Position numbers and translations under genes: made by a program. From IMG/VR virus record IMGVR_UViG_3300005613_000005, positions 27,213-91,212 of that record: DNA of 64,000 nucleotides; one strand, written 5' to 3'. The notes under the pieces are model-generated. The model did not search any database. It was not told the origin of the DNA and saw nothing but the letters and a program-made list of their open reading frames with translations. This document shows positions 13,412 to 59,824 of this stretch, in pieces (the first letter of the stretch is position 1; the number at the start of each line of letters is the position of its first letter). The DNA comes from a virus. Taxonomy: Duplodnaviria; Heunggongvirae; Uroviricota; Caudoviricetes.

Positions 13412-13449
13412 CCGGACGAAACAGGTATTTAAAACTGAAGGAGGTATTT

Positions 13450-13962: not shown

Positions 13963-13975
13963 GTTAAGCTAAGAC

Positions 13976-13997: not shown

Positions 13998-14001
13998 TCA
14001 A

Positions 14002-14017
14002 TTGACACTGCTACGCC
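14002..14017 (+). repeat. 16-nt conserved motif TTGACACTGCTACGCC (copy 1 of 4)
   Basis: near-identical copies at 14669, 15297, 30414, each after a gene end/hairpin. Confidence 0.7.
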
Positions 14018-14027
14018 GGGGAGCTCT

Positions 14028-14040
14028 GACCGATCCGATA
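14028..14040 (+). promoter_or_regulatory. phage-specific upstream motif GACCGATCCGATA
   Basis: CCGATCCGA core 32 nt upstream of ATG 14060; recurs upstream of many + strand genes. Confidence 0.5.
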
Positions 14041-14059
14041 GGTCTGCTAGGAGGTGGTT

Positions 14060-14236
14060 ATGAAGAACACGATAGTCATAGACTACATGAGGCGAGAGTT
14101 CATACGGTTCGAGACCGAGAACGGCGACGTTCGCTACCTGTTGTACCTGCCGCTGGGAGCTGTCATAAGTCCTGACATAGACACTATCAAGGCGATCATT
14201 GAAGAGGATGTTGAGTATTTGAAGATCGCGGCTTAA
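14060..14236 (+). CDS. hypothetical protein
   Basis: GGAGGTGG SD; ATG 14060. Confidence 0.5.
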   Translation: MKNTIVIDYMRREFIRFETENGDVRYLLYLPLGAVISPDIDTIKAIIEEDVEYLKIAA

Positions 14237-14247
14237 GTTAAGGGTCG

Positions 14248-14445
14248 GTGATGTCTAACCCCCGTCACCGACCACTTTTTCTGGAACCGAAACGATCAGT
14301 TATCGATGATGAGACCTACAGAGAGTCTGGCTGCCACGAGCGTCGAGCAGCAATGGTAGCGATCTCTGACTGCGATAACGGGCAGGTGTCTTCGCAGCGC
14401 CTGCCCACCTTTTGGAGGGATTATGAAGATACCGATATGGATTAA
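14248..14445 (+). CDS. hypothetical protein
   Basis: 65-aa ORF. Confidence 0.4.
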   Translation: MMSNPRHRPLFLEPKRSVIDDETYRESGCHERRAAMVAISDCDNGQVSSQRLPTFWRDYEDTDMD

Positions 14446-14668
14446 AGTTAAAGACTGGAAGATCTATTTCTCGATGTGGGATACTCTGAACTGGGAGTCG
14501 ATAGACTACGATGAGCTGCACTTCTACTATGAGGATCCCAGATATTCCGTTCACGTGGTAGAATAATCTTATGGGTCGTGAGACCCAGCCGGACCAAAGT
14601 TCTGAGCCAGGAACTCGAGGACTTTACTGTCGGGCGCGTCCGGCGCCCGCAGGTTTCCCTTCAAAACA

Positions 14669-14684
14669 CTGACACTGTTACGCC
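14669..14684 (+). repeat. 16-nt motif CTGACACTGTTACGCC (copy 2)
   Basis: preceded by hairpin CGGGCGC-gtccg-GCGCCCG. Confidence 0.7.
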
Positions 14685-14697
14685 CCAGCCGCCGCTC

Positions 14698-14710
14698 GAC
14701 CGATCCGACC
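14698..14710 (+). promoter_or_regulatory. upstream motif GACCGATCCGACC
   Basis: 52 nt upstream of ATG 14750. Confidence 0.45.
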
Positions 14711-14749
14711 TCTAGTCAGAACAAACAAGAAACTTTAAAGGAGGTTAAC

Positions 14750-15256
14750 ATGAACCAGAGAGAAGCAGTCTACACCATCACACACTCCATCCTCAAAGAG
14801 CATGGGGTAACTTTCGAAGACGGGGACAACATCAGTTCCGTCATGACTGACGAGTACCGCAAGCAGATCATCGAAGCGATCGTCACCAGTTTCCAGTCCG
14901 GCAAGATCGACTTCAAAGATACTCAAGCGAACCAGGAAAAATTAGGTGACGTGAGCAAGCTCCGCAGCTATACTTCCGGTCTCGTGAGCAACTGGTTCCG
15001 CAAGGACCCTCGCTTCAACGGCAACGTCAAGTATGAAGCCAAGAACCCAGGTTCAAGGGCAGGTCAAGGCGACGCGCAGATGAAAAACTTAAGGCTCCTC
15101 AAGAAACAGTACGAGGGGACAGACAAGGTAAAAGACATAGACGCCGCCATAGCCGACCGCACCGCCGAGCTCAGGGCTGCCAAGGCCAAGAAAGTTGAAG
15201 TAGACTACACAGCGATACCCGAAGAACTCAAGGAAGCTCTCGGCATCACCGAATAG
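14750..15256 (+). CDS. MNQREAVY-family protein, paralog 2
   Basis: AAAGGAGG SD; ~60% identical to paralogs 1 and 3. Confidence 0.65.
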   Translation: MNQREAVYTITHSILKEHGVTFEDGDNISSVMTDEYRKQIIEAIVTSFQSGKIDFKDTQANQEKLGDVSKLRSYTSGLVSNWFRKDPRFNGNVKYEAKNPGSRAGQGDAQMKNLRLLKKQYEGTDKVKDIDAAIADRTAELRAAKAKKVEVDYTAIPEELKEALGITE

Positions 15257-15296
15257 GTCAAGATACAGCCGGCCGCAGGTCAACCGCTTGCGGCCA

Positions 15297-15312
15297 CTGA
15301 CACTGCTACGCC
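15297..15312 (+). repeat. 16-nt motif CTGACACTGCTACGCC (copy 3)
   Basis: preceded by hairpin GGCCGCA..TGCGGCC. Confidence 0.7.
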
Positions 15313-15595
15313 TACCGACCCCGGCCGCTCCCGGCTAGGGACCTGAGTGGGCCAACGTCGGTCAGCTCGCAGCCGCCCTCTCCATCTAATAATTTAAACA
15401 AAACGTACCCCAAAACCCCCTAGGGAAAGACGGACCTCCACCGATCCTCACCGTCCCTGACAGGGCTCCGGTGCTGGCCCTCGTCGGTCAAGTTCTTTCT
15501 AAGTTAGTTAGCTTGCAACAGTCTGTGAGCCGCCCCACCCCCGCCCCTTGCTGTCTTTTGATCTAATAAAATCAAGGGCTTACATGGCCTTATGC

Positions 15596-15610
15596 AACCG
15601 ATCCGAATTA
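15596..15610 (+). promoter_or_regulatory. upstream motif AACCGATCCGAATTA
   Basis: 30 nt upstream of ATG 15626. Confidence 0.45.
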
Positions 15611-15625
15611 TCCTCGAGGTGGTGC

Positions 15626-15901
15626 ATGAGTAAGCTGCAAGTAGTGGGAATAGAGTCCCTGGAAAGTCTACCACGAGTAGTTGCCTGGTGGCTGCGGTGT
15701 AGTTCAAGGTTAAGTTCTGTAGAAGCTGCTGCTAGGATTCCTGGTCCGAGGTTGCTGGAGAAGTTGTATGAGTTCTTGACCACGGTAGACGTAGAAATGT
15801 TTCGCAGCGGATATGGCTCTAGAAACCGTGATGCTAAAGCTTACGATGTTCACTTAGAGGTCTTGTTCGATGAGATTTTGAGGAGAAGGGTATTATGGTA
15901 G
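15626..15901 (+). CDS. hypothetical protein
   Basis: ORF trimmed to ATG 15626 downstream of motif and GAGGTGG. Confidence 0.45.
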   Translation: MSKLQVVGIESLESLPRVVAWWLRCSSRLSSVEAAARIPGPRLLEKLYEFLTTVDVEMFRSGYGSRNRDAKAYDVHLEVLFDEILRRRVLW

Positions 15902-16059
15902 AAACTTTATTCTGGGGCGTGTTGGTGTTGAGCTGTCTGGTGATAAGCAGATGCATCACCGGCCTGACGCTGTGCTGGTTTGAATACGGTCGTATAGGGA
16001 AGATGATAGACGACCGAGCGGTTTCAAAGGGAGAGTACCGTGAAAAAAATAGGGGCTGA
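15895..16059 (+). CDS. small hydrophobic protein (tentative)
   Basis: 54-aa ORF MVETLFWGVLVLSCLVISRCITGLTLCWF..; overlaps next gene start. Confidence 0.3.
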   Translation: MVETLFWGVLVLSCLVISRCITGLTLCWFEYGRIGKMIDDRAVSKGEYREKNRG

Positions 16060-42516: not shown

Positions 42517-42672
42517 ATGAGTCTGATAATGGTTAGATTTTTAGTAATTATTGGGATGATTGTATTTTTCACTGTACTAGGAACCTCTATGGGATATGCT
42601 ATAGGGTATGAAAAAGCATATATCAAAGCTAAAACTAGTGAGCGAAGAAAAAAAGACCGTCGAAAAACCTAA
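42517..42672 (+). CDS. small membrane protein
   Basis: 51 aa with TM segment. Confidence 0.35.
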   Translation: MSLIMVRFLVIIGMIVFFTVLGTSMGYAIGYEKAYIKAKTSERRKKDRRKT

Positions 42673-42685
42673 AGAAGGAGAAAAC

Positions 42686-43540
42686 ATGAAATTATTTTTA
42701 TTATTGTGTATGCTGCTCGTGGGTACCAGCGCATTCGCCAAAAATGACAAGAAGCTCGACGTTGTTCTAAAAGATGATAACTTTTTTGCGGTTACTTCAG
42801 TCTTTACAGAACGTCTTTTAGAAGACTTCAATCGTAAAGTTATGACTTACGACGGCGATGAGCTCATCGTGTACATCGATAGCCCAGGAGGCAGCGTATT
42901 TTCTGTAGCGCGCATGGTATCTATAATGAGGTCATCTGAGGTTAAATTTACTTGCGTAGCTCGTTTCGCCGCTTCTGCCGCGTTCACGATGTTTCAAGCC
43001 TGCACCAACAGGTATATCTTGTACGATGGTATCATAATGCAGCACAATGCTTCTGGTATTTTCTGGGATGAATTTCCCAGGATCGAAACATTATATACCG
43101 CGATCAAAGATATAGTTACCGATATGGAAACACAGACAGCAAAAAGGATGAAGATGGAGTTCAAGGATTTCAAGGTGGCCATCAACAACAACCTGTGGTT
43201 GTCTAGGATCACCGCTCCAAAATACAACGCGATCGACGCCGTGATAAACACTATAAAATGCGAAGAGTCACTGATCAAGAAAACCATCACTAAAGCAGAA
43301 AGAAAATGCGGTTGGTTCAGCTGTTCGACTACCTATAAAAAATATTCAGCGTGCCCGCTGTTAACCCTTCCTCTTCCCGAACCTCCTAAAAAAGATAAAC
43401 CTGCTGATGATGGATGGTACGACGATGAATTCTACGATGGACATCCTTTATATCTTCCGTTTGATGAAAAAATCAACACGAACATCAAGAACTTCATGCA
43501 CATAGCCCCTTATACTATTAAAGATAAGATCATGAAATAA
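42686..43540 (+). CDS. secreted ClpP/S49-like serine protease paralog
   Basis: AAGGAG SD; signal peptide MKLFLLLCMLLVGTSAFA; LIVYIDSPGGSV...ARFAASAAFTMF...IIMQHN. Confidence 0.55.
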   Translation: MKLFLLLCMLLVGTSAFAKNDKKLDVVLKDDNFFAVTSVFTERLLEDFNRKVMTYDGDELIVYIDSPGGSVFSVARMVSIMRSSEVKFTCVARFAASAAFTMFQACTNRYILYDGIIMQHNASGIFWDEFPRIETLYTAIKDIVTDMETQTAKRMKMEFKDFKVAINNNLWLSRITAPKYNAIDAVINTIKCEESLIKKTITKAERKCGWFSCSTTYKKYSACPLLTLPLPEPPKKDKPADDGWYDDEFYDGHPLYLPFDEKINTNIKNFMHIAPYTIKDKIMK

Positions 43541-48836: not shown

Positions 48837-48912
48837 GAGTCGGTGGTGATAACGGTAACACGTCAGGCTGTTAACCTGTAAGATCTAGGTTCGATTCCTA
48901 GCCGGCCCGCCA
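48837..48912 (+). tRNA. tRNA-Asn(GTT)-like, possible pseudo-tRNA
   Basis: cloverleaf with A2:C71 acceptor mismatch and weak anticodon stem; loop ctGTTaa; encoded CCA. Confidence 0.4.
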
Positions 48913-48935
48913 AAATTGAATAGGAGATTTAACGA

Positions 48936-49012
48936 GCCACCGTAGCTCAGAATGGCAGAGCGCGGGCCTGAAGAGCCCGGTGTCGGAGTTTCGATACCTC
49001 CCGGTGGCACCA
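48936..49012 (+). tRNA. tRNA-Phe(GAA)
   Basis: acceptor GCCACCG/CGGTGGC, loop ctGAAga, T-loop, CCA. Confidence 0.8.
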
Positions 49013-49046
49013 GGTATTTGAAAAACGAATAGTAGAATGAGATTGT

Positions 49047-49342
49047 GGAGACGGCAAGACCGTTACTGGGAGGTGAAAACCCCTGGAGGATAAAGTCCGG
49101 ACACCGAAGAGCAGCGTAGTGGCTAACGGCCACCCGTCAGGAAGACGAGGACTAGTGGAACAGAGACGAGCCAGTTAAGTCTGGAATGAAACGGCTAAAC
49201 TCTACGCGGTGCAACGCCAAATAGGCTAGCTATTGACCTATGCTCGGGGGACGTTGGCGGGTAGGCGGCAGTGAGCTGGAAGGTAACGACCAGCCCAGAT
49301 AGATTACGGTCGAGGTACAGAATCCGGCTTATTACCGTCTCC
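49047..49342 (+). ncRNA. rnpB: RNase P RNA (bacterial type A-like, reduced)
   Basis: GGAGGATAAAGTCCGGAC (P4 5' strand), GTGGAACAGAGACGAGCC, CGGTGCAACGCCAAATAGGC, GGGTAGGC..CAGTGAGC, GTACAGAATCCGGCTTAT (P4 3' strand); P1 pairing GGAGACGG/CCGTCTCC. Confidence 0.75.
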
Positions 49343-49370
49343 ATCCGGCCAGGAACAATCTCAAAACAAA

Positions 49371-49471
49371 GGAAGACTTATCCGAAAGATTCTGGGTAGC
49401 GGAGACTGTCTTGAAAACAGTTTGGTGAAATATAAGTAGCCGTCAGGGTTCGAATCCCTGGTCTTCCGCCA
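49371..49471 (+). tRNA. tRNA-Ser(TGA), long-arm type, unusually long (101 nt)
   Basis: acceptor GGAAGAC/GTCTTCC, loop ctTGAaa, long variable arm, CCA. Confidence 0.55.
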
Positions 49472-49473
49472 AA

Positions 49474-49557
49474 GGGGTATCTGCGGAGTGGGATCCGCGC
49501 GAGCCTGTAGAGCTCGTGCCGCTGCGCTAGGAGGTTCGATTCCTTAATACCCCACCA
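49474..49557 (+). tRNA. tRNA-Tyr(GTA)
   Basis: acceptor GGGGTAT/ATACCCC, loop ctGTAga, 13-nt variable arm. Confidence 0.7.
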
Positions 49558-49560
49558 GAC

Positions 49561-49636
49561 GCTCACGTAGCCCAACGGGAGAGGCAGCAGCTTCAAACGC
49601 TGAAGAGTGTTGGTTCGAATCCAACCGTGAGTACCA
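49561..49636 (+). tRNA. tRNA with anticodon CAA (Leu-reading) but short variable arm
   Basis: 76 nt, loop ttCAAac, 5-nt variable region, discriminator A. Confidence 0.5.
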
Positions 49637-49637
49637 A

Positions 49638-49714
49638 GCGGAGGTAACCCAACAGGAAGAGGTAGCAGGCTTAAACCCTGTTCAGCATGGGTTCAAATCC
49701 CATCCTCCGCACCA
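49638..49714 (+). tRNA. tRNA with anticodon TAA (Leu-reading), short variable arm
   Basis: acceptor GCGGAGG/CCTCCGC, loop ctTAAac. Confidence 0.55.
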
Positions 49715-49715
49715 C

Positions 49716-49788
49716 GCCTCGGTGGTCTAACAGATAAGGCACTGGTCTTCTAAGCTAATTGATGTGGGTTCGACTCCTACCTGAGACA
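49716..49788 (+). tRNA. tRNA-Arg(TCT)
   Basis: loop ctTCTaa; C2:A71 mismatch and weak anticodon stem; no encoded CCA. Confidence 0.45.
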
Positions 49789-49792
49789 CTAT

Positions 49793-49882
49793 GGAAGGTA
49801 AACTGGCATGGTGCCAGGCTTGCCTGCTAAGCAATGCGCGCTCTTATACGGGCGTATGGTTCGACTCCATTGCCTTCCGCCA
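49793..49882 (+). tRNA. tRNA-Ser(GCT)
   Basis: 90 nt, loop ctGCTaa, long variable arm, CCA. Confidence 0.7.
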
Positions 49883-49973
49883 AGTCTATTTAAAAATATA
49901 GTAAAACAACAATATGCATAATTATGTGCATCAACGGCTGTTTGAACAGCAATGGTAACAGAAAGTAGACATT

Positions 49974-50297
49974 ATGTCTAAAATTAAAGTTAAATTTGAA
50001 GAGCCTAGTTTTTGTAGTTACGACAATGTTTGGAAAATTTCATGGACTATAAACGGACGCAGAACTAATTCTTTCAGTAGTCGTGGCAAAAGAATAGGCC
50101 AGACTATCTCGCCTAAACAAATAGCAAATGAATATCGAGAGGCATTAAAAAGAGGACAAATTGTAGTTGATTTTTTAACTCAAAAAATCACCCGCAAACA
50201 AGCTATCAATAATTTAAAAGACCTGCGATTTCTATGCCCTAAAAACCAAACATCACATTTATTAACATTAGCAGAATTTGCTTTAAATTTACGTTAA
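49974..50297 (+). CDS. hypothetical protein inside tRNA array
   Basis: 107-aa AT-rich ORF between tRNA subclusters. Confidence 0.4.
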   Translation: MSKIKVKFEEPSFCSYDNVWKISWTINGRRTNSFSSRGKRIGQTISPKQIANEYREALKRGQIVVDFLTQKITRKQAINNLKDLRFLCPKNQTSHLLTLAEFALNLR

Positions 50298-50298
50298 T

Positions 50299-50376
50299 TG
50301 GTGTCCTCGACCGGATTTGAACCGGTGTCTCCGGAGTGAAAGTCCGATATCCTAGACCTGACTAGACGACGAGGAC
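50299..50376 (-). tRNA. tRNA-Glu(TTC), opposite strand
   Basis: rc GTCCTCG...ctTTCac...CGAGGAC-A-CCA. Confidence 0.75.
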
Positions 50377-50377
50377 C

Positions 50378-50455
50378 TGGTACTCGGGAGTGGACTTGAA
50401 CCACCGACCTCTGCCTTATCAGAGCAGCGCTACTAACCAACTGAGCTACCCGAGC
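50378..50455 (-). tRNA. tRNA-Ile(GAT), opposite strand
   Basis: rc GCTCGGGTAGCTCAGTTGGTTAG...ctGATaa...GGTTCAAGTCC. Confidence 0.8.
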
Positions 50456-50614
50456 ATGTTCGTTTCTGTTTACAGATTGTATGGGATAACGGGTGCGCGT
50501 TTACGCAACAGACAACTCAACGCACACCTTACATTCGATCTCAATAATAATAAGTTCAAGTGTACGTTTCATCATTAACCCATTATACCACACTTTGTTA
50601 GGTATAAATAATAT

Positions 50615-50812
50615 ATGGATAAGATAAGTAAGTGCGATAAACATCCTAAGTATAATGGATCGAAGAAACCCAGGACTGATTGCGATCAGTGTTGGAAGAT
50701 ATATTTGAAAAAACAAGAACGCAAGAAACGCGTGCCGATCAGACCGACCAAAGTGATACCAGACAAGACCAAGTACACGCGCAAGAAGAAACATAAGAAA
50801 AAAGAGGAGTGA
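50615..50812 (+). CDS. hypothetical basic protein
   Basis: 65 aa Lys-rich. Confidence 0.45.
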   Translation: MDKISKCDKHPKYNGSKKPRTDCDQCWKIYLKKQERKKRVPIRPTKVIPDKTKYTRKKKHKKKEE

Positions 50813-50814
50813 GT

Positions 50815-51093
50815 ATGTCAGTGACAGTAAGTTATCTACTCTCAATGGAAAAAAGTTTAAAAGCCAGGTTAGGCCAACTCAAAGAACTAAGGAGCGAGGT
50901 CTCAACGCTCGAGAGATGGGGCGACAGGGACAAGATCAAAGAACCGCAGTACGATGTAAAGGCGGTAGACAAGATGATAAGCGACATCAACAAGGTCCTG
51001 TTCGAGATCGACCAGAAGATCAAGGAGAGCAACGCTCGCACAAAAATTAAGATTAACGTAGACTATAACGAGTTAATGTCAGAGATCAAGTAA
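50815..51093 (+). CDS. hypothetical coiled-coil protein
   Basis: ATG 50815 after GAGGAG. Confidence 0.45.
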   Translation: MSVTVSYLLSMEKSLKARLGQLKELRSEVSTLERWGDRDKIKEPQYDVKAVDKMISDINKVLFEIDQKIKESNARTKIKINVDYNELMSEIK

Positions 51094-51298
51094 GCGATTA
51101 CTTGCATCCACGACATAGAAGAGGACTGACTTCGATGTCGAGAGAAGAACGTTCCACACTAATGCTGGACGCGTGGTATGACCCCGCATAAAACATTGTT
51201 GTTGATCAGGGGTGCTCACAAATTGTCCGTTGATTGTGGTTGGTTGTTGTCTTTAGTTCTTCTCGTCCTCTTTTTTTTATCACTTAATAAAAATTATA

Positions 51299-51307
51299 TG
51301 GTATAAT
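51299..51307 (+). promoter_or_regulatory. extended -10 promoter TGGTATAAT for second tRNA block
   Basis: upstream of 51500 tRNA block. Confidence 0.4.
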
Positions 51308-51499
51308 GTATTTTATGATTACTAACTTTATAAATCTCATAGTTCAGATACTGAAAGGAACATGTCAAGGCGTGGATACCAACGCCATGGTTCCTTGTCG
51401 TGTGCGTGCTGCCCGACCTATGCGACATATAAAGGCGCCATGGCGTAAGTAATCAAAATCTAGTAAGCAAATCAAATTAAATTTAATAGGTTTTGACGA

Positions 51500-51575
51500 G
51501 GGCTGGTGGTGATAACGGCCAACACGCCGCGCTTGCACCGCGGAGATCAGGGTTCGATTCCCTGCCGGTCCACCA
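51500..51575 (+). tRNA. tRNA-Ala(TGC)
   Basis: acceptor GGGCTGG/CCGGTCC (two G:U), loop ctTGCac. Confidence 0.7.
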
Positions 51576-51612
51576 AGATTTTTGACAACTGAATAGGTAG
51601 ATCATAAAACGA

Positions 51613-51687
51613 TGGGGAATAGTGCAATGGCTAGCACGACGGGCTTTGAACCCGTTAGTGGTGGTTCGAATCCACCTTCCCCAACCA
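51613..51687 (+). tRNA. tRNA-Gln(TTG)
   Basis: U1:A72, loop ctTTGaa. Confidence 0.75.
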
Positions 51688-51688
51688 T

Positions 51689-51764
51689 GCGAGTGTAGCT
51701 CACCGAGAAGAGCGTCGGTCTTCCAAACCGAAGGCAGCGGGTGCAAGTCCCGCCTCTCGCTCCA
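51689..51764 (+). tRNA. tRNA-Gly(TCC)
   Basis: loop ctTCCaa; one acceptor mismatch. Confidence 0.65.
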
Positions 51765-51765
51765 T

Positions 51766-51842
51766 GCCAGAGTAGCCCAATTGGAAGAGGCATACGGCTT
51801 AGACCCGTAGTGTTGTGAGTTCGAATCTCACCTCTGGTACCA
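51766..51842 (+). tRNA. tRNA with anticodon TAG (Leu-reading), short variable arm
   Basis: acceptor GCCAGAG/CTCTGGT, loop ctTAGac. Confidence 0.55.
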
Positions 51843-51843
51843 A

Positions 51844-51920
51844 CTGAGTGTAGCGCAGTCTGGTAGCGCGCCTGGCCTGGGCCCAGGAGGTCGGAGGTTC
51901 GAATCCTCCCACTCAGACCA
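51844..51920 (+). tRNA. tRNA-Pro(TGG)
   Basis: acceptor CTGAGTG/CACTCAG, loop ccTGGgc. Confidence 0.75.
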
Positions 51921-51929
51921 AGTAAACGA

Positions 51930-52004
51930 TGGCGCTTGGTGTAACAGATAGCATATCAGGCTACGAACCTGAAGATGAGGGTGCAATTCCTTCAGTGCCA
52001 ACCA
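51930..52004 (+). tRNA. tRNA-Arg(ACG)
   Basis: U1:A72, loop ctACGaa. Confidence 0.7.
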
Positions 52005-52011
52005 TATATAT

Positions 52012-52086
52012 GCCCGCGTGACCGAGTAGCTTAGGACACGGACTGCAAATCCGTGCACGCTGGTGCAAATCCAGCCGCGGGCTCCA
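52012..52086 (+). tRNA. tRNA-Cys(GCA)
   Basis: acceptor GCCCGCG/CGCGGGC, loop ctGCAaa. Confidence 0.7.
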
Positions 52087-52087
52087 C

Positions 52088-52163
52088 AGACGAGTAGCTC
52101 ACCGAGAAGAGCGCTAGCCTTACAAGCTAGAGGCAGTGGGTGCGAGTCCCTCCTCGTCTACCA
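52088..52163 (+). tRNA. tRNA-Val(TAC)
   Basis: A1:U72, loop ctTACaa. Confidence 0.65.
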
Positions 52164-52164
52164 T

Positions 52165-52244
52165 GGGCGTGTATCGGCTTACTCTTATAAGGTATAGAAA
52201 CCGTAATTGGAGACATGGAGGTTCGAGTCCTCCCACGCCCACCA
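52165..52244 (+). tRNA. atypical tRNA-like gene (anticodon undetermined)
   Basis: perfect acceptor GGGCGTG/CACGCCC and T-arm but no canonical D/anticodon arms. Confidence 0.35.
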
Positions 52245-52245
52245 C

Positions 52246-52319
52246 GCTCCATTAGTTCAGTGGCAGAACTGCTGTCTTGTAAACAGCGTACAGAGGTTCG
52301 ATTCCTCTATGGAGCTCCA
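52246..52319 (+). tRNA. tRNA-Thr(TGT)
   Basis: acceptor GCTCCAT/ATGGAGC, loop ctTGTaa. Confidence 0.8.
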
Positions 52320-52320
52320 G

Positions 52321-52394
52321 GGGCGGTTAGTGTAACGGCAGCACGTCGGCTTCCAAACCCGACAGTTTGGGTTCAAATCCTAAGCCGCCCGCCA
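52321..52394 (+). tRNA. tRNA-Trp(CCA)
   Basis: loop ttCCAaa. Confidence 0.7.
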
Positions 52395-52398
52395 ACGA

Positions 52399-52473
52399 GG
52401 TGCTATAGTGTAGTGGTTATCACGCCGGACTGTCTATCCGGAGACCGGGGTTCGATTCCCCGTAGCACCGCCA
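52399..52473 (+). tRNA. tRNA-Asp(GTC)
   Basis: acceptor GGTGCTA/TAGCACC, loop ctGTCta. Confidence 0.8.
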
Positions 52474-52492
52474 GATAAGGTATAATATCAAC

Positions 52493-52762
52493 GTGATAAC
52501 AACGATCAGTAAAAAAATTTTAGATATACTTTTAAACGTGACCGCAACGAACAGTCATGAAAAATGTCCTTACTGCGAACGAACTTTAAAGTACGACAGG
52601 ATAGTTGAGTGCGATATATACGAATCCGTTCATCCTACCAACTACGGTATGTGGTTTACGTTCACGTATAAAAAATGCCCGTGCAACTACGGCCCTTCTA
52701 CTGTAAGCAATCACTTGATCATCGATCATCTTCTATATAAATTAGGTATCAGGTACACGTAG
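52493..52762 (+). CDS. hypothetical Cys-rich protein inside tRNA array
   Basis: 89-aa ORF (CPYC...CPC); TATAAT upstream. Confidence 0.4.
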   Translation: MITTISKKILDILLNVTATNSHEKCPYCERTLKYDRIVECDIYESVHPTNYGMWFTFTYKKCPCNYGPSTVSNHLIIDHLLYKLGIRYT

Positions 52763-52800
52763 TCAAATTTGAGTTTTTAAACATATTTAAAGACCTAGAT

Positions 52801-52875
52801 GTGACTATAGTGTAACGGTCAGCACGAGAGGTTGTGGTCCTCTAAGTGAGGGTTCGAGTCCCTCTAGTCACCCCA
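52801..52875 (+). tRNA. tRNA-His(GTG)
   Basis: loop ttGTGgt; discriminator C73; no encoded G-1. Confidence 0.75.
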
Positions 52876-52944
52876 GGTCAATAAAAAATTTCCGATCGAA
52901 CGGGGGAAATCTGCAGCTTGGAAATTATACGGTATAATATGTAT

Positions 52945-53020
52945 GGCGGGATAGAGCAGTGGTCAGCTCACAGGTCTCATAAGCCTGGCGTCGGTGGTTC
53001 GAATCCACCTCCCGCTACCA
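52945..53020 (+). tRNA. tRNA-Met(CAT) (elongator-type, or Ile-lysidine)
   Basis: loop ctCATaa; lacks initiator hallmarks. Confidence 0.7.
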
Positions 53021-53826: not shown

Positions 53827-54266
53827 AAAAGAAAGCTATCATAGTTGACCTGGACGGAACCTTGTGCAACACCAAGCATCGCAACCATATACTGGAAACA
53901 AATCCCGGCAACTGGGACAAGTTCAACGAGGGTATCCCGTTTGATATCCCCAACCCGTGGTGCATGGAAATAGTAGAGAACTTCGCGAAAGAAGGGTATC
54001 ACATCCTTTTCGTCACCGGCAGAAACTCCAACACACACGACGCTACGGAGCAATGGTTAAGAACTTACCTGAACCCGACCGTCCAATGGGACCTGCACAT
54101 GAGACCCGACCACAACTACATCGCAGATACCATAATTAAAACAAACATCTATTTCACTAAGATACTGCCATTCTACGACGTGGTGTTCTGCGTCGACGAC
54201 AAACGTTCCATATGCGATCTGTGGAGAAGTTTAGGACTAGTAGCCCTTCACTGCGAAGATTACTGA
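53823..54266 (+). CDS. HAD-superfamily phosphatase (polynucleotide 3'-phosphatase / nucleotidase-like)
   Basis: motif I IIVDLDGTL (DxDGT); FVTGR; C-terminal CVDDK. Confidence 0.6.
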   Translation: MKKKAIIVDLDGTLCNTKHRNHILETNPGNWDKFNEGIPFDIPNPWCMEIVENFAKEGYHILFVTGRNSNTHDATEQWLRTYLNPTVQWDLHMRPDHNYIADTIIKTNIYFTKILPFYDVVFCVDDKRSICDLWRSLGLVALHCEDY

Positions 54267-55042
54267 TTCTCGGGGATTATATCTTCGCCCGACTCGTCGA
54301 TGATTATGTCGGGATCAAACTCTTCTTTCTTAGGTACTGTAACATCTATCTTGACTATCCCTTTACGGTTCGTACGCTTATATAAATCTTTGATCAGTTT
54401 CTTGAGTTCTTTTTCGTCGGGCGCATTCGACATCTTAGCTATCCTTGATCTTCGTAAGTTACCCCGCTTCTTGGGTTGAATTATGTTGTCGGCGATTCCC
54501 AACGACACTGCTTCACTCGCGGTTATGTAGACGTCACGCTGCAAGATGTCGTTCCAGAAACTTTCCGGCATATGTGAGTTCTCTGCGAATAGTTTGTCAA
54601 GCTTGCTTTGCAGGTCCTTAGTTGATTTAGCTTCGATCTGTACGTCGGTATGCTTACCCTCTATCTCGTCCAACCCGTCGTGCAACATTATCTCAGTGTT
54701 GGGATATAAGTTCCTTTCATCACATATCGCCATAAGCCAGGTCGCCGCTGATGCTATCTGTCCGCCGCCGAAAAACTTAACCTGACAAGGGCAAGACAGT
54801 ATGACGTCGACCAGACGCAGCATCGACGTGGCACTACCACCGCACGACTGTATATGTAACTCTATAGGTTTCTTAGGATTGTCTGATACTAATAGGTGGA
54901 TAGCTCGAACAGCTTTCTCAACGGTGTTCCAACTGAACTCTTCGTGTCCCTCATCGTTCAACACGCCAAAATATATGCGCCGCATCTTACGATCAAAGTT
55001 TCTCTCAAAAATCTCCTCGACACGGCTGTTTTTATCAGACAT
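54260..55042 (-). CDS. ClpP-like serine protease, third paralog
   Basis: start trimmed to M27 (MSDKNSRV) which has AGGAG + TGGTATAAT upstream; IELHIQSCGGSATSMLRLVDVI...TEIMLHDG. Confidence 0.55.
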   Translation of the reverse strand: MSDKNSRVEEIFERNFDRKMRRIYFGVLNDEGHEEFSWNTVEKAVRAIHLLVSDNPKKPIELHIQSCGGSATSMLRLVDVILSCPCQVKFFGGGQIASAATWLMAICDERNLYPNTEIMLHDGLDEIEGKHTDVQIEAKSTKDLQSKLDKLFAENSHMPESFWNDILQRDVYITASEAVSLGIADNIIQPKKRGNLRRSRIAKMSNAPDEKELKKLIKDLYKRTNRKGIVKIDVTVPKKEEFDPDIIIDESGEDIIPENQ

Positions 55043-55061
55043 CTTCACTCCTATTGATACT

Positions 55062-55070
55062 ATTATACCA
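55062..55070 (-). promoter_or_regulatory. extended -10 promoter (TGGTATAAT on minus strand)
   Basis: rc of 55062..55070 followed by AGGAG and ATG 55042. Confidence 0.4.
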
Positions 55071-55142
55071 CCGTGAACGTAGTATGCTATCGTGCGAGTT
55101 TCAATAACCGATTCGATCAATATTCAGAATTGAGGTGCATGT

Positions 55143-55397
55143 ATGAGCAAAGATACTAAAAAGAAAGTTGAAGAATATCTAGCAAAAGGCGGAAAGATAA
55201 CCAAATGTCCGTCAGAGCCAACACCGGAGAAAGAGATAACTATGAAGCCAAATCACTCTGGACTTGCTAACATAATGACTTTATTAGAAGGCGCTTTATA
55301 CTACGGTGAGCACGCTCGCAAGAAGAAAAAGAGGGATTTATCAAAGATCGATCTCAGTACTATACCTGAAAATCTAAAGAAAAAACTAGGAATATGA
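55143..55397 (+). CDS. hypothetical protein
   Basis: 84 aa; AACCGATTCGATCAA motif variant upstream. Confidence 0.45.
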   Translation: MSKDTKKKVEEYLAKGGKITKCPSEPTPEKEITMKPNHSGLANIMTLLEGALYYGEHARKKKKRDLSKIDLSTIPENLKKKLGI

Positions 55398-55485: not shown

Positions 55486-55677
55486 ATGCATTGTCTCAAA
55501 GAAGATATGAAAGAACAGGAAAATAATTATTGGGAAAACGAAGCCAATAACTTTGAAAGTCAATGCGACGACCTGCCAGACGACGTAGCGGAAAGGGACG
55601 ATGAGATACAGAGACTAGAAGAACGTATAGAGGAACTAGAAGAGGAGTTAGCAGATTACGTGCTACTGGCTGAATGA
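55486..55677 (+). CDS. acidic coiled-coil small protein
   Basis: 63 aa. Confidence 0.4.
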   Translation: MHCLKEDMKEQENNYWENEANNFESQCDDLPDDVAERDDEIQRLEERIEELEEELADYVLLAE

Positions 55678-56282
55678 AAACGTTTGCGAAGAAGTTTATG
55701 GGCTTTTATATGTTGTTTTTTAGTTAATATTTCTAAATTCCATGGTACATGCAAACCATATATACCCAGATGATTAAATTCACGTAAAGGTATTTTATGG
55801 TGAACAAATCTAGGAATACCATCAGATGATTCAAGTTGTTTTGCTTTTTTATAAATTTCTCTAATTTCTTCATCAAATCCAATTATTGATGAGGATATCT
55901 TAGCGGCTTGACGTTTTCGTACTTTATGTATATATTTTGCTGGATTCTTTTTATATTGTTCACGGCTTACAGCATTTATATGATTTTTGTTCGCGCTTTT
56001 CCATCTTTTATTGACGCTGTAATTATAACCAGGAAATTGTTTTCTGTGATATTGTTGTTGACATTTTTTATTGCAAAATTTTTTATATGGAACAAGAGAG
56101 TTAAGCTTTATGCTACAATTTAGACATGTACGATTTAATAAAAAATTATCTGTTAAAAGTAAATTACGCTCTAATCGTATACATTCTTTACACTTAGAAC
56201 GTACTCCAAATTTACCTGTTTTTTGTTTAGAAAAATACGATAGATTTTTTACTTTACTACATTTTTTGCATATTTTAACCAT
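55656..56282 (-). CDS. HNH homing endonuclease (distinct subfamily)
   Basis: N-terminal CKKCS...CKEC, CLNCS...CNKKC zinc fingers; C-terminal HHKIPLREF...NL..L....H..H. Confidence 0.65.
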   Translation of the reverse strand: MVKICKKCSKVKNLSYFSKQKTGKFGVRSKCKECIRLERNLLLTDNFLLNRTCLNCSIKLNSLVPYKKFCNKKCQQQYHRKQFPGYNYSVNKRWKSANKNHINAVSREQYKKNPAKYIHKVRKRQAAKISSSIIGFDEEIREIYKKAKQLESSDGIPRFVHHKIPLREFNHLGIYGLHVPWNLEILTKKQHIKAHKLLRKRFHSASST

Positions 56283-56303: not shown

Positions 56304-56320
56304 GAACCGATCCGATTAAT
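56304..56320 (+). promoter_or_regulatory. upstream motif GAACCGATCCGATTAAT
   Basis: 51 nt upstream of ATG 56355. Confidence 0.5.
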
Positions 56321-56354: not shown

Positions 56355-57503
56355 ATGAAACCAACTAAAATGTTCGATATCCTGGATCTTGCCTGGGAGG
56401 CCAGGATGAAAGACAGGGTTTTTAATCCCCTGTTCACAGGCGAAGCTGGACTTGGAAAATCTGCTATCGCTCAGCAATGGGTAGCTAAGATGCGCAAGAA
56501 ATACCCGGATTTCGTGTTTTTAGACCTGCGTATCGCTTACATGGAAGCGCCGGACATGATCGGTTTTCCGGAAGCGGACGTCGTCGGCGGTGTTAAGAGA
56601 ACCGTCCACAACATACCGGAGTTCTGGCCCGATGCCGAAGTTAATCCTGATCAAAAAGGGTTGATACTATTTGAAGAACCAAATCGCGGAACTACCGGCG
56701 TCATGAACTGTCTGATGCAGATATTGACTGATCGTAAAGTTCATAAACTCAAGATACCCGACGGTATCATGTTCGCGGCGTGCATCAACCCTGACTCAGC
56801 AGAGTACGATGTCAACCACATGGACGCGGCGCTGAAGAACAGGTTCGAAGAGTTCATAGTCGAGTACGATCATATGGCTTTCATGTCCTACATAGACAAG
56901 CAGAAATGGCACGACGATATCCAAAGGTTCGTCGGCAGTGGTACCTGGATCTATAAACCAACGAAAGAGATCAAGGAAAACGGTAAGTATATATCGCCAA
57001 GAACTTGGGAAAAAGTTGAAGCTGCTCTCGCAGCCGGAGTAAAAGAGGATCGCGGACTGCACAGGACGGTCATGGGCTCTATCCTTGGTAGGGACATCGG
57101 CAATGAGTTCCACAAGTTCTGCTACGAAGAAGCTCCTGTTACGGCTGAAGAACTGCTCGAGAACAAAGAAAAAGCATTGAAAAGATTAAAGAAACAATCT
57201 GACCCGAAACACTATAAAGGCGACATGATCGCCGTTACGGTAGAGTCGATATCAAACATGTATGGTGGTCTCCCAGATACTTGTCCAAAGGACAAGATAG
57301 ACGAGAATCTTATGGCTGAGGTCGCCAAGATAATTCCTTCTGATCAAGCGATCAACCTGTTGAAACAATGTGGTTTCAAACAAAAAGGTGTTAATATCTC
57401 CGCGTACTTCAAGGAGTTCACAAAACGTCATCCAGAACTGGTGACAGTACTGCGCGGTAACATAAAGATAGATCGTGCGCTTAACAAAAAAACAGATAAA
57501 TAA
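56355..57503 (+). CDS. MoxR-like AAA+ ATPase
   Basis: Walker A GEAGLGKS, Walker B LILFEE, sensor NRGTT, MoxR-type C-terminal region. Confidence 0.7.
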   Translation: MKPTKMFDILDLAWEARMKDRVFNPLFTGEAGLGKSAIAQQWVAKMRKKYPDFVFLDLRIAYMEAPDMIGFPEADVVGGVKRTVHNIPEFWPDAEVNPDQKGLILFEEPNRGTTGVMNCLMQILTDRKVHKLKIPDGIMFAACINPDSAEYDVNHMDAALKNRFEEFIVEYDHMAFMSYIDKQKWHDDIQRFVGSGTWIYKPTKEIKENGKYISPRTWEKVEAALAAGVKEDRGLHRTVMGSILGRDIGNEFHKFCYEEAPVTAEELLENKEKALKRLKKQSDPKHYKGDMIAVTVESISNMYGGLPDTCPKDKIDENLMAEVAKIIPSDQAINLLKQCGFKQKGVNISAYFKEFTKRHPELVTVLRGNIKIDRALNKKTDK

Positions 57504-57569
57504 GCACGATCACAAACTGCAGCGGTCTCACCTCCTTTGGCCGCTGCAGAACTTTAAATTGGAGTTGAT

Positions 57570-59051
57570 ATGGCAGATAAAAAGAGACGTATCAGGATTA
57601 CCAAAGAGTTATTGGACGATGAGTTCGTCGAAGTACACGAGCAAGAACAATGTCTTGCGACGACGTTGTACGAGACTACACGATCCCACCCGTTCATGGG
57701 AGCGATACTTCAGTGCTTAAACATAACGTACACTCACGTTCTCCCTACAGCTGGCGTTACGTTCAACGCAGATGCTAAACGCTGGGATCTTTGGATAAAC
57801 CCTAAGTTTTTTTGCCACAAGTTGAACGAAACCCGCGGCGCCAGCGGAAAAAAGATAGGCGATAAAGCAAGAAAAGCCGTTCTATTACATGAACTTTACC
57901 ATATAACAAACAAGCATCCAATGAGGGTGCCTTTCATAAAACTATCGCCGCAGAAACGGCAGCTCATGAACATAGCCGCTGACATGGCGATCAACCAGTT
58001 CATACAGCATCTTCCAAACGGATGTAGCCAATGCCCACCAAAAGAAGCTTTAATGATGGGAGCGGAATGTAAGAACAAGAACTGTTGCGGCAGCACCATA
58101 GACGTCAAAGATTACTATGACGAAGACGACAAGGGCAACAAAAAACCGTGGCCGGAAGGCGAGACCATGGAAAACTACTACGACCGGTTGCTCAGGAGAA
58201 TCCAAGAAGCTGAAGAAAGTGGATGCTGTCAGACCTGCGGCGGCGATGGCATGGAGAAAGACGAGAACGGCGAGAACACCGGCAAGGTTTGTCCTGACTG
58301 CAAGGGTTCGGGAAAAGGGAAAGGAATGCCTAGTACATTGGATTCTCATGACTGGGACGCGTCTGGGGACGAAAGAGATATGTTAGAAGCAACAGAGGAT
58401 CTCGTTAAACGTGCCATGATCAAACAAAGGATGTCCTACGACGACCTTCCAGGTTCCATGAAAGACCTACTAGAAGACATCAAAGCTAGAAAAGCAGAAT
58501 TAGATTATAGAGGTGAGATACTCGCTGCAATCAAGAAATCAGCCTCAGGCCACGAGCGCAAGCATACCTGGTCCAGGAAATCGCGAAGATTCGGCACAAA
58601 AGCTCCTGGAACTAAGGTCGGTGACCTACCAAAACTATCGTTTTACTTGGACACGTCGGGATCAATATCCATAGAAGAGCTTAACGAGTTTCTTGACATA
58701 GTTGATAATTTTCTCAGAGCTGGTTCCAGAAAATGTCACCTGAACATGTTCCATGCCTCTAACTATTTCAGCGAGGAGTACAAACTAGGACGCAGGATCA
58801 AGCGCGAGGAGATAGAGACGGGTGGAACTTGTCTGGAGAGTTCCATGCGCGACGTGTGCAAGCGACGCCCTGACCTGGCAATATTCGTCACGGACGGTTG
58901 CTACGGCGACATCGACATAACCGGTTGGCTACCGCCAGGCATGAACTTCCCGCAGTGCCTGTTCATAATCAGCAGGGAAGGGGATGCTAAACACCCGCTG
59001 GAACGGTTCGGGAAAACGATCAAGATACCAACTACCACCAACGTGAAATAA
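57570..59051 (+). CDS. VWA-domain protein with N-terminal putative metallopeptidase (HExxH) domain, MoxR partner
   Basis: LLHELYH (HExxH) in N-terminal domain; Cys-rich linker; VWA MIDAS DTSGS, TDG. Confidence 0.65.
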   Translation: MADKKRRIRITKELLDDEFVEVHEQEQCLATTLYETTRSHPFMGAILQCLNITYTHVLPTAGVTFNADAKRWDLWINPKFFCHKLNETRGASGKKIGDKARKAVLLHELYHITNKHPMRVPFIKLSPQKRQLMNIAADMAINQFIQHLPNGCSQCPPKEALMMGAECKNKNCCGSTIDVKDYYDEDDKGNKKPWPEGETMENYYDRLLRRIQEAEESGCCQTCGGDGMEKDENGENTGKVCPDCKGSGKGKGMPSTLDSHDWDASGDERDMLEATEDLVKRAMIKQRMSYDDLPGSMKDLLEDIKARKAELDYRGEILAAIKKSASGHERKHTWSRKSRRFGTKAPGTKVGDLPKLSFYLDTSGSISIEELNEFLDIVDNFLRAGSRKCHLNMFHASNYFSEEYKLGRRIKREEIETGGTCLESSMRDVCKRRPDLAIFVTDGCYGDIDITGWLPPGMNFPQCLFIISREGDAKHPLERFGKTIKIPTTTNVK

Positions 59052-59070: not shown

Positions 59071-59079
59071 TGGTATAAT
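59071..59079 (+). promoter_or_regulatory. extended -10 promoter TGGTATAAT
   Basis: 7 nt upstream of ATG 59086. Confidence 0.4.
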
Positions 59080-59741: not shown

Positions 59742-59760
59742 GAACCGATCCGATAATTAA
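59742..59760 (+). promoter_or_regulatory. upstream motif GAACCGATCCGATAATTAA
   Basis: follows structured element, precedes terminator-like hairpin and small ORF. Confidence 0.45.
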
Positions 59761-59791
59761 TCATAGAGATAACAGACCTCCTTGAGAAGCG

Positions 59792-59824
59792 CCGGAGGGT
59801 CCTTATACGGGCCTTCCGGTTTTT
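59792..59824 (+). terminator. rho-independent terminator
   Basis: CCGGAGGG..CCTTCCGG + TTTTT. Confidence 0.55.

Follow-up and report, generated by a model that had tools for sequence, protein, structure and literature searches.

A predicted MoxR-class ATPase and zincin peptidase-VWA gene pair of the N4 gp24/gp25 family in an uncultivated myovirus

Two adjacent genes of an uncultivated myovirus (~157 kb) represent a widespread and already described phage gene pair, the N4 gp24/gp25 family, within which they form a new, well-populated lineage. Both open reading frames lie on the plus strand of the 64,000-nucleotide stretch of DNA that was analysed (hereafter the window): a 382-aa protein with the features of a MoxR-class AAA+ ATPase (56355-57503) is followed, after a gap of 66 nt, by a 493-aa fusion of a zincin peptidase and a VWA domain (57570-59051). 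The original prediction of a MoxR-VWA two-gene pair was therefore correct in both reading frames and their exact positions. Its treatment of the pair as an open novelty has to be given up, as the combination belongs to the gp24/gp25 family and has been described for jumbo phages (PMC7824862). Our best reading, held tentatively and at slightly less than an even chance, is that the pair would be a self-contained, ATP-driven and MIDAS-targeted protease or remodeller that is made before the late genes.

Domains and conserved residues of the two proteins

We characterised the 382-aa protein by profiles, motifs, an AlphaFold model, Foldseek and hhalign. It carries a Walker A motif (GEAGLGKS, aa 29-36), a Walker B motif with EE replacing DE (LILFEE, aa 103-108), sensor 1 (N145), an arginine finger (R163) and a sensor-2-like ISPRTW motif (aa 213-218), after which a helical C-terminal extension of roughly 200 aa runs up to residue 382. 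Walker A and B, N145 and R163 are invariant among 65 relatives, as is SPR(T)W, distant phages included; the first acidic residue of Walker B is Glu throughout the present clade and Asp in AR9, PVP-SE1, AD45-P1 and N4. The protein aligned with the full Pfam AAA_5 model (3-139 of 139) at 18.9 bits, which is under the cut-off of 22, so strict Pfam validation fails; AAA_5 was also matched weakly by 57 of the 65 relatives, with a best E of 1.1e-4. A match to phrog_1297 ('ATPase') was obtained at 1e-42, and neither the NCBIfam search nor the PDB sequence and profile searches gave a meaningful match. The AlphaFold model (pLDDT 79) shows the features of clade 7, namely a beta-hairpin following helix 2 (residues 72-85) and short strands ahead of residues 137-144. 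In a Foldseek search of this model against the PDB, the top 12 matches were NorQ (E 1.6e-5 to 1.9e-4), with McrB and CbbQ2 ranking next; the TM-scores were low (0.25-0.38), so that the assignment to MoxR rests on ranking and motifs. The predicted MoxR AAA+ identity is thus moderately supported, by the motifs, phrog_1297 and the NorQ/CbbQ ranking, and not by AAA_5. A second ORF of 382 aa in the window (1238-2386), considered as a paralogue of equal length, proved unrelated and has an HNH/small-terminase-like appearance.

The 493-aa partner was identified by profiles, an AlphaFold model (pLDDT 84) and hhalign. It scored above the cut-offs of both DUF2201_N (46.2 bits, cut-off 23.2) and the VWA-like DUF2201 (27.0 bits, cut-off 26.4), and each of these profiles was matched by all 69 relatives scanned. 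Profile validation, the check proposed with the original prediction, hence succeeds for both domains of the partner and fails for AAA_5 of the ATPase. The expected DUF2201-like N-terminal metallopeptidase domain is present together with its LLHELYH motif, which overlaps a HExxHxxxxH active-site motif (HELYHITNKH, aa 107-116, nt 57888-57917, plus strand). The residues H107, E108, H111 and H116 are invariant in the 69 relatives and also in AR9, AD45-P1 and phiKT1024; H116, D138 and H260 are invariant candidates for the third zinc ligand. Peptidase_M48 was matched weakly by 58 of the 69 family members and M56 by 23. This recurrent profile similarity to M48 (HtpX/Ste24) and M56 (BlaR1) lies near HExxH and is below threshold in all cases, and the partner, unlike M48/M56 proteins, has no membrane segments, and no curated cut-off admits it to either family. 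The sole profile match in the PDB sequence and profile searches was a HtpX homologue at E 0.75, which is not meaningful. SprT-like kinship was rejected, since weak SprT matches occurred in only three of the 69 members.

The partner contains two cysteine-rich insertions. Four cysteines (C152, C155, C167, C172; 58020-58088, plus strand) inserted in the peptidase domain are conserved in the clade, missing in AR9, AD45-P1 and phiKT1024, and presumed to bind zinc. Further downstream, a variable acidic/Gly-rich linker contains a putative DnaJ-type zinc-finger insert (58227-58313, plus strand) with two CxxCxGxG repeats, CQTCGGDG (aa 220-227) and CPDCKGSG (aa 241-248). The CxxCxGxG motif was found in only 12 of 120 relatives; Pfam DnaJ_CXXCXGXG was matched by one of 69 members, weakly (E 0.027), and phrog_3931 gave a weak match at aa 215-250.

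Directly ahead of the first VWA strand lies the basic linker TWSRKSRRF (58566-58592, plus strand; T333, R336, R339, R340), which is invariant across distant phages and has the counterpart RPNRRY in N4 gp25. In this region the model falls below a pLDDT of 50 (residues 331-336 and 344-350), and we regard the linker as a candidate ATPase-engaging element. The partner shows the VWA fold, in the form of a minimal VWA domain (58626-59030, plus strand) with a complete MIDAS (D361-x-S363-x-S365, T420, D442); the DTSGS motif named in the original prediction occupies aa 361-365 (nt 58650-58664). All five MIDAS residues are invariant, even in comparison with AR9, AD45-P1 and phiKT1024. No finger-like insertion was evident in the VWA domain of the AlphaFold model. 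The invariance of HExxHxxxxH, MIDAS, Walker A/B, N145, R163 and SPR(T)W argues that both proteins are active enzymes rather than scaffolds.

Distribution and genomic linkage

The pair was found in N4-like phages, AR9/PBS1-like jumbo phages, cyanophage S-TIM5, crAss-like viruses and a large clade of uncultivated myoviruses, and the family of the partner comprises ~6,800 clusters at 50% identity. In Escherichia phage N4, gp24 (ATPase) and gp25 (vWFA) follow the same gene order as here, with hhalign values of 97.2% (E 3.6e-11) for the ATPase and 98.4% (E 5.7e-15) for the partner and BLASTP values of 1e-6 and 1.6e-10, respectively, although sequence identity is only ~22%. N4 gp25 shares HExxH, the RxxRR linker, DTSGS, GGT and TD with the partner; it is shorter (380 aa) and has neither the four-Cys cluster nor the DnaJ-like zinc finger, and the Walker B motif of N4 gp24 reads DE, the canonical form, unlike the EE of the present ATPase. 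N4 is a podovirus, whereas the source phage is a myovirus. Order and domain architecture are likewise the same in Bacillus phage AR9/PBS1, where g028 is an AAA ATPase and g029 a zincin-like protease-vWA protein, but identity is ~23-25%, Walker B reads DE and the Cys cluster is absent; PBS1 ranked second among the viral structural matches (E 2.8e-20). An identical architecture was published by Iyer et al. 2021 for a MoxR AAA+/metallopeptidase-vWA pair of group 2.2 jumbo phages (PMC7824862), with Atu_ph07 as a partial match; unlike these phages, the source genome lies under the jumbo range. PHROG 1314 and the RefSeq records of N4, AR9, AD45-P1 and Atu_ph07 label the peptidase-VWA protein 'HNH endonuclease'. 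Literature searches on DUF2201, COG3864 and Schitoviridae von Willebrand proteins yielded no functional study. Neither gp24 nor MoxR/vWA appears in the CRISPRi-ART paper, whose 'gp25' was rejected as N4 gp25, being a gene of another phage, PTXU04.

The source phage has no close cultured relative. The nearest match to its tail sheath was Myxococcus phage Mx1 (30%), and a megablast search of 50,697 phage records with the locus and with 24 kb of window sequence gave zero matches. Around the pair we found tRNA, PNKP, ClpP, Smr, RNR and ligase genes; the tRNA array also contains a compact RNase P RNA of 300 nt. Neighbouring genes conserved across the clade encode ClpP, an 84-aa protein and a Zn-ribbon/endonuclease-VII-like protein. 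A tblastn search of phages with the clade-specific neighbours orf84 and orf179 gave no match, and PADLOC defence-system models matched neither the two proteins nor three neighbours.

The two genes are strictly linked. In all 25 loci of relatives (L002, L003, L005-L027), the partner gene follows the ATPase gene on the same strand, and the two are also adjacent in N4, AR9 and AD45-P1. In PMC4193335, the core of N4-like phages (Schitoviridae) consists of just 14 genes, and the pair is among them. Across six distant neighbourhoods (present clade, N4, AR9, AD45-P1, phiKT1024 and PVP-SE1), no genes other than those of the ATPase and the peptidase-VWA protein were shared, and no client gene was linked to the pair in these six lineages or in the 25 clade loci. 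A scan of genome contigs returned only 10 loci, all on MAG contigs that resemble mis-binned phage DNA, with no bacterial operon context.

Expression context and the virion-assembly proposal

A promoter-like motif, CCGATCCGA (extended form tGAaCCGATCCGAttaat), is located at 56307-56315 on the plus strand, 39 nt upstream of the ATG of the ATPase gene. The window contains seven exact copies, all on the plus strand, versus 0.35 expected, and none of 100 shuffles reached seven; when up to one mismatch was allowed, 14 matches were found, again exclusively on the plus strand. Six of the seven copies precede an RBS and ATG by 19-41 nt. The motif is common to the pair and a block of small plus-strand ORFs at 14-25 kb, and was not found at the minus-strand structural genes of the window. 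The exact motif was also not found in the locus of any relative, where a related, looser ATCCGAAA / TCTGAAAC element lies ~45-60 nt upstream of the ATPase start. The upstream motif of the original prediction is therefore present and enriched, and we infer its action as a promoter from sequence. Between the two genes, a stem-loop can be read from the sequence (57517-57549, plus strand; 9-bp stem CTGCAGCGG/CCGCTGCAG, 15-nt loop). It is not followed by a T-run and may dampen expression of the gene behind it.

The timing of expression bears on the published proposal for this architecture. By analogy with ATV, Iyer et al. 2021 suggested that the pair of group 2.2 jumbo phages is a virion-assembly chaperone, which would help to build the head or tail while the fused peptidase processes structural proteins (PMC7824862). 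ATV p618 (MoxR) and ORF892 (VWA) are the sole viral MoxR-VWA pair that PMC7159879 and PMC7824862 cite as experimentally studied, with a role in virion tail development, and ORF892 was among the structural matches of the partner's VWA part (rank 35). Some structural genes of N4-like phages also lie in the middle region near gp24/gp25 (PMC4193335). The ATV pair, which stems from an archaeal virus, lacks a peptidase domain and includes a far larger VWA protein, and the extracellular tail growth of ATV has no equivalent in tailed phages.

Several observations point to expression of the pair ahead of the late genes. AR9 g028/g029 are located behind an annotated early promoter; the N4 pair occupies a non-late region beside nucleotide-metabolism genes, and PMC4193335 classes gp24/gp25 as middle transcripts. 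In the window, the pair lies in a nucleotide-metabolism/tRNA region, far away from the tail genes and on the opposite strand, and these minus-strand genes are not preceded by CCGATCCGA. Judged from the early and middle regions of the homologues and from this context, the pair is probably expressed earlier than the late (virion) genes. This speaks against the virion-assembly proposal. In addition, phages that carry the pair include podoviruses and myoviruses whose tails are unrelated, none of the structural genes varies in step with the pair across the six neighbourhoods, and the available text and table excerpts of PMC4193335 do not name gp24/gp25 homologues as RPP1/RLP1 virion proteins. A role in virion assembly is thus rather unlikely, though it is the strongest competitor of the protease/remodeller reading.

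Proposed mechanism, alternatives and implications

For a protease or remodeller made before the late genes, NorQ-NorD provides a mechanistic template, in which docking is of the 'finger-in-pore' type and a linker is stretched (PMC13036017). In such a mechanism, the 382-aa protein would form a MoxR-type AAA+ hexamer, and the partner would dock on this ring through its VWA domain, in the manner of NorD on NorQ. Either TWSRKSRRF, the basic linker, or a loop of the VWA domain would probably enter the ring pore, and the MIDAS site would capture an acidic residue of the target protein. ATP hydrolysis could then twist or stretch the partner, by which the target is exposed to the HExxHxxxxH zincin or the zincin is switched on, and the target would be cut. 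The target gene is not encoded beside the pair; as target, a cofactor-dependent enzyme appears less likely than either a phage protein that is not part of the virion or a protein or complex of the host. Against this reading we count the AAA_5 score under the cut-off, the exchange of Asp for Glu in Walker B and the VWA domain with no finger-like insertion, and also the action of the ATV pair in tail development and the preference of Iyer et al. for virion assembly.

Alternatively, the peptidase could be directed at the partner itself. In an autoprocessing or autoinhibitory role, it might for instance cut the basic linker and release an active VWA adaptor, and the pair would then do no more than ATP-driven remodelling and have no external proteolytic substrate. 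Precisely at the junction of the peptidase and VWA domains there is a basic segment that is both invariant and disordered (T333, R336, R339, R340), and the family shows weak similarity to M48/M56-like zincins, which include signal-triggered self-cleaving proteins such as BlaR1. On the other hand, every homologue is encoded as one full-length fusion of ~390-500 aa, and autoprocessing would be compatible with external substrates too. We consider a purely self-directed peptidase improbable.

The pair has its closest chaperone relatives in NorQ/NorD and CbbQ/CbbO, MoxR-VWA systems of the CGN subfamily, to which it shows 13-15% sequence identity and relative to which the ATPase adds its helical C-terminal extension. 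A metal-cofactor insertase acting on RNR or a radical-SAM protein in the manner of NorQD, CoxDE or CobST, as originally suggested, is highly improbable and unsupported, because cofactor-inserting pairs sit with the operon of their client (cNOR and Rubisco for NorQ/NorD and CbbQ/CbbO) and no linked client was found here in any lineage examined, RNR is 16 kb distant, the pair is core in N4-like phages whatever their RNR content (PMC4193335), and the idea overlooks a strictly conserved protease active site, which has no counterpart in NorD, CbbO and CobT, proteins without a protease domain.

The present locus adds a well-populated lineage to the gp24/gp25-type pairs and maps the residues that tolerate no change, namely those of the protease site, the MIDAS and the basic linker, the last of which had not been pointed out before. 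The comparison of six neighbourhoods further reveals no client gene that accompanies the pair, and the 'HNH endonuclease' label on peptidase-VWA proteins is exposed as a propagated error. A more specific version of the protease/remodeller reading, which we consider clearly unlikely as it stands, is that the module corresponds, on the viral side, to the AAA+-coupled 'protein-removal' proteases, of which Wss1/SPRTN with Cdc48 is an example. By this analogy, the basic linker and the MIDAS would allow the MoxR ring to grip one particular host protein that is firmly bound within a complex, such as one on DNA or in the transcription or replication machinery, and the fused, ATP-gated zincin would destroy it in the early or middle phase of host takeover. 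If true, the pair would be a general, previously uncharacterised host-takeover protease of N4-like phages, PBS1/AR9-like phages and many uncultivated phages.

Identity of the ATPase and its peptidase-VWA partner

The two genes are consecutive ORFs on the + strand, exactly where the original prediction had placed them: a 382-aa MoxR-class AAA+ ATPase (56355-57503, +) is followed by a 493-aa peptidase-VWA partner (57570-59051, +). We are highly confident in this identity of the module as a MoxR ATPase and peptidase-VWA pair. Profile searches, with which the prediction was to stand or fall, gave a divided result. The partner passed, while the ATPase, taken literally, did not: it scored 18.9 bits against AAA_5 (Pfam), below the cut-off of 22, in an alignment covering the full model (3-139 of 139), and an NCBIfam search returned nothing useful. 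We nevertheless uphold the MoxR assignment because of five further lines of evidence. The ATPase matched phrog_1297 ('ATPase') in PHROGs at 1e-42, and its relatives gave weak AAA_5 matches in 57 of 65 cases and bpMoxR matches in five. Invariant throughout the family are Walker A (GEAGLGKS), Walker B (LILFEE), N145, R163 and an ISPRTW motif, which resembles the 'SPR' sensor-2 motif of MoxR proteins. The AlphaFold model (pLDDT 79) contains a beta-hairpin after helix 2, and Foldseek ranked 12 NorQ chains best among PDB structures (E 1.6e-5 to 1.9e-4), followed by McrB and CbbQ2. The first Walker B position is Glu rather than Asp, a trait specific to this clade.

For the partner, both the predicted HExxH metallopeptidase and the MIDAS were borne out. 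It matched DUF2201_N (putative metallopeptidase, Pfam) with 46.2 bits (curated cut-off 23.2) and the VWA-like DUF2201 with 27.0 bits (curated cut-off 26.4), and carries HELYHITNKH at aa 107-116 and DTSGS at aa 361-365. Invariance was scored across the clade together with the phages AR9, AD45-P1 and phiKT1024. All share the HExxHxxxxH residues (H107, E108, H111, H116), a complete MIDAS (D361, S363, S365, T420, D442), six further positions (N134, D138, N142, Q143, H260, W262) and a basic stretch (T333, R336, R339, R340) in a low-confidence loop right before the first VWA strand. This basic linker is also found in N4 gp25, as RPNRRY. Such conservation across the clade and distant phages argues that protease and MIDAS would both be functional, and points to the linker as a probable functional element. 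Specific to this clade is a four-Cys cluster (C152, C155, C167, C172). So is a putative DnaJ-type zinc finger with two CxxCxGxG repeats, which this protein shares with 11 of the other 119 relatives and which sits within an otherwise variable acidic/Gly-rich linker. Across the family, M48 (58/69) and M56 (23/69) recur as weak matches of the peptidase, and SprT hardly at all (3/69).

A new lineage of a widespread phage gene pair

The partner belongs to a large family. A word-indexed search found 664 homologues, and an exhaustive profile search 6,761 clusters at 50% identity (E <= 1e-3), of which 1,785 remained at E <= 1e-10 and 165 at E <= 1e-30, mostly of 390-500 aa. At all 25 loci of relatives, the ATPase and partner genes share a strand and are separated by 0.1-1.5 kb, the ATPase gene lying upstream; identities are 55-62% (ATPase) and 50-57% (partner). 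By tblastn at about 24-26% identity, the partner was found in the Bacillus phages AR9, Internexus and BpSp as well as in Vibrio phiKT1024-type phages, Alteromonas AD45 phages and Atu_ph07; the ATPase was found in rV5-like phages, other Salmonella/Shigella phages of about 71-72 kb and others labelled 'MoxR ATPase'. BFVD matches spanning both partner domains came from PBS1, Pseudomonas phage Zuri, cyanophage S-TIM5, Klebsiella phage FBKp27 and Ruegeria phage V13, and a shorter one from a 260-aa crAss-like metallopeptidase-domain protein.

Counterparts of both genes are known in named phages. In AR9, g028 (AAA ATPase) is next to g029 ('zincin-like protease fused to vWA domain'), and an annotated early promoter lies directly ahead of the two; in AD45-P1, a COG3864 and a COG0714 gene are adjacent in reversed order. 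Profile comparison related the ATPase to N4 gp24 (97.2%, E 3.6e-11) and the partner to N4 gp25 (98.4%, E 5.7e-15), both supported by BLASTP and in matching gene order. Chan et al. 2014 (PMC4193335) count gp24 and gp25 (vWFA) in the 14-gene core of N4-like phages and assign both to the middle transcripts of N4. Iyer et al. (PMC7824862) describe the same MoxR and metallopeptidase-vWA architecture in group 2.2 jumbo phages. Given these homologous pairs and their published descriptions, the pair represents a new lineage within a widespread and already known kind of phage gene pair.

The label 'HNH endonuclease', attached to the peptidase-VWA family by PHROG 1314 and by the RefSeq records NC_008720 (N4 gp25), NC_031039 (AR9), NC_021532 and NC_042013, is an annotation error passed between records: no HNH domain is detectable in the family, and the GenBank originals read 'zincin-like protease fused to vWA domain'.

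The nearest named relatives of both proteins (HWN81_00190 and HWN81_00195, 77-78% identity) lie on a 56-kb contig and are recorded as MAG proteins of 'Candidatus Lokiarchaeota archaeon'. A further relative comes from a contig of 146.7 kb in a Cytophagales bin. In both cases, phage contigs have probably been mis-binned into MAGs.

Genomic setting, expression and possible role

The source of the window is a metagenomic contig of 157,173 bp with no close cultured relative by megablast of the locus and 24 kb of the window against 50,697 phage records; the nearest match of its tail sheath gene is Myxococcus phage Mx1 (30%). Tail genes occupy the - strand at 0.5-9 kb, and the pair lies within a + strand non-structural block, among nucleotide-metabolism genes. 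The window also encodes an RNR large subunit, DNA ligase, PNKP-type phosphatase and Smr protein.

Clade members usually share the order ClpP(-), 84-aa protein, ATPase, peptidase-VWA and, further downstream, a Zn-ribbon/endonuclease-VII-like gene. The ClpP-like serine protease (54260-55120, -; PF00574, 6e-29) is a divergently oriented, conserved neighbour of the pair in most clade relatives and is absent beside it in N4 and AR9; a second is encoded at 42608-43540 (+). The gene for the conserved 84-aa protein (55143-55397, +) lies directly upstream of the ATPase gene in most relatives, with a gap as small as ~45 nt in some of them. Its product could be a third component specific to this clade; it matched the SutA RNAP-binding domain weakly, below threshold (19.9 bits, cut-off 29.3), and has no counterpart in cultured phages. 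Between the 84-aa gene and the ATPase gene lies, in the window, a Zn-ribbon/endonuclease-VII/HNH-like gene (55656-56282, -; phrog_1035, 9e-9), probably a homing-type mobile insertion, since none of the relatives has a homologue at this position.

The predicted promoter motif, CCGATCCGA, occupies 56307-56315 (+), and 39 nt separate it from the ATPase ATG. Seven exact copies occur in the window, all on the + strand (14030, 14700, 15598, 20923, 24867, 56307 and 59745), against 0.35 expected, and none of 100 shuffles reached seven; in locus L001, the motif is placed at 20847. An RBS and ATG follow six of the copies at 19-41 nt, and the flanking bases lengthen the consensus to tGAaCCGATCCGAttaat. 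Allowing one mismatch gave 14 matches, every one on the + strand, with variants at 22151, 30454 and 55108 just ahead of gene starts. The motif is thus a real, non-random signal placed like a promoter; that it acts as one is inferred. The exact 9-mer was not found in the relatives' loci, many of which carry a ATCCGAAA / TCTGAAAC element at the equivalent place, 45-60 nt ahead of the ATPase start. ORFs downstream of the sites are mostly small without family match, and as a set the + strand sites resemble a regulon of early or middle genes. Three of the seven sites fall in a GC-rich island (12001-16000; 52-53% versus about 40% elsewhere) holding short ORFs only.

Further signals surround the pair. 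A hairpin in the 66-nt gap between its genes (57517-57549, +; 9-bp stem, 15-nt loop, no T-run) might tune the ATPase:partner expression ratio. Downstream, an extended -10-like TGGTATAAT (59071-59079, +) stops 7 nt short of the start codon (ATG, 59086) of a 179-aa endonuclease-VII-like gene. This gene lacks an obvious Shine-Dalgarno sequence and may be transcribed from a promoter of its own, as a leaderless mRNA. Between this gene and the Smr gene, the motif copy at 59745 has no ORF behind it and is followed 37 nt on by a strong intrinsic terminator (59791-59820, +; 12-bp stem with 8 GC pairs, T-run), suggesting a candidate short RNA (~70-80 nt) or leader at 59745-59820. An 86-nt stretch of this region folds at -27.7 kcal/mol (z -2.2) and matched no Rfam family.

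In recent NorQ-NorD structures, the VWA partner sits on the MoxR ring, inserting a finger into its pore and touching it again at the post-sensor-1 loop. Hand-over-hand movement powered by ATP turns the VWA domain, stretching a linker through which the client is contacted, probably by way of the MIDAS (PMC13036017). Were this docking to carry over to the phage pair, the part pulled would, in contrast to NorQ-NorD, bear an intact zincin. An ATP-gated, MIDAS-targeted protease or remodeller would then be the most economical reading, which we put tentatively at just short of an even chance. Four observations together place expression of the pair before the late genes: the early promoter in AR9, the middle-class transcription in N4, the nucleotide-metabolism neighbours, and the presence of CCGATCCGA also at a group of small + strand ORFs at 14-25 kb. 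This makes a target in host takeover or the replication phase moderately more likely than one in virion maturation and tells against a virion-assembly chaperone or processing protease, a role in line with the virion assembly and proteolytic processing proposed by Iyer et al. (PMC7824862) and, on balance, unlikely here. That the protease serves self-processing only is improbable. Least probable is the cofactor insertase of the original prediction, whose domain identity was partly right and whose functional reading is unsupported: it leaves the protease unexplained and has no linked client, as all-against-all comparison of the neighbourhoods in the window phage, AR9, PVP-SE1, AD45-P1, phiKT1024 and N4 found no common gene beyond the ATPase and partner. 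The module is self-contained, with no client co-inherited.

A compact RNase P RNA in the tRNA array

The window contains a tRNA array (48837-53020) of 22 genes, 20 on the + and two on the - strand, with 19 amino-acid specificities and Lys missing. Inside it lies a class-A bacterial RNase P RNA (RF00010; 49047-49346, +; Rfam 179.6 bits, cut-off 100, E 2.4e-56), which matches the full model within only 300 nt. The conserved core retains both GAGGAAAGUCCGG and ACAGAAUCCGGCUUA intact; in the middle of the model, about 77 consensus positions have shrunk to 23 nt. The RNA is kept in at least two related phage contigs, L002 (20504-20812, 184 bits) and L010 (16833-17118, 188.2 bits), and spans 286-309 nt across all three, inside or beside the tRNA array. 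Our literature search found no description of a phage-encoded RNase P RNA, and this compact form may perhaps be of greater interest than the MoxR-VWA pair itself.
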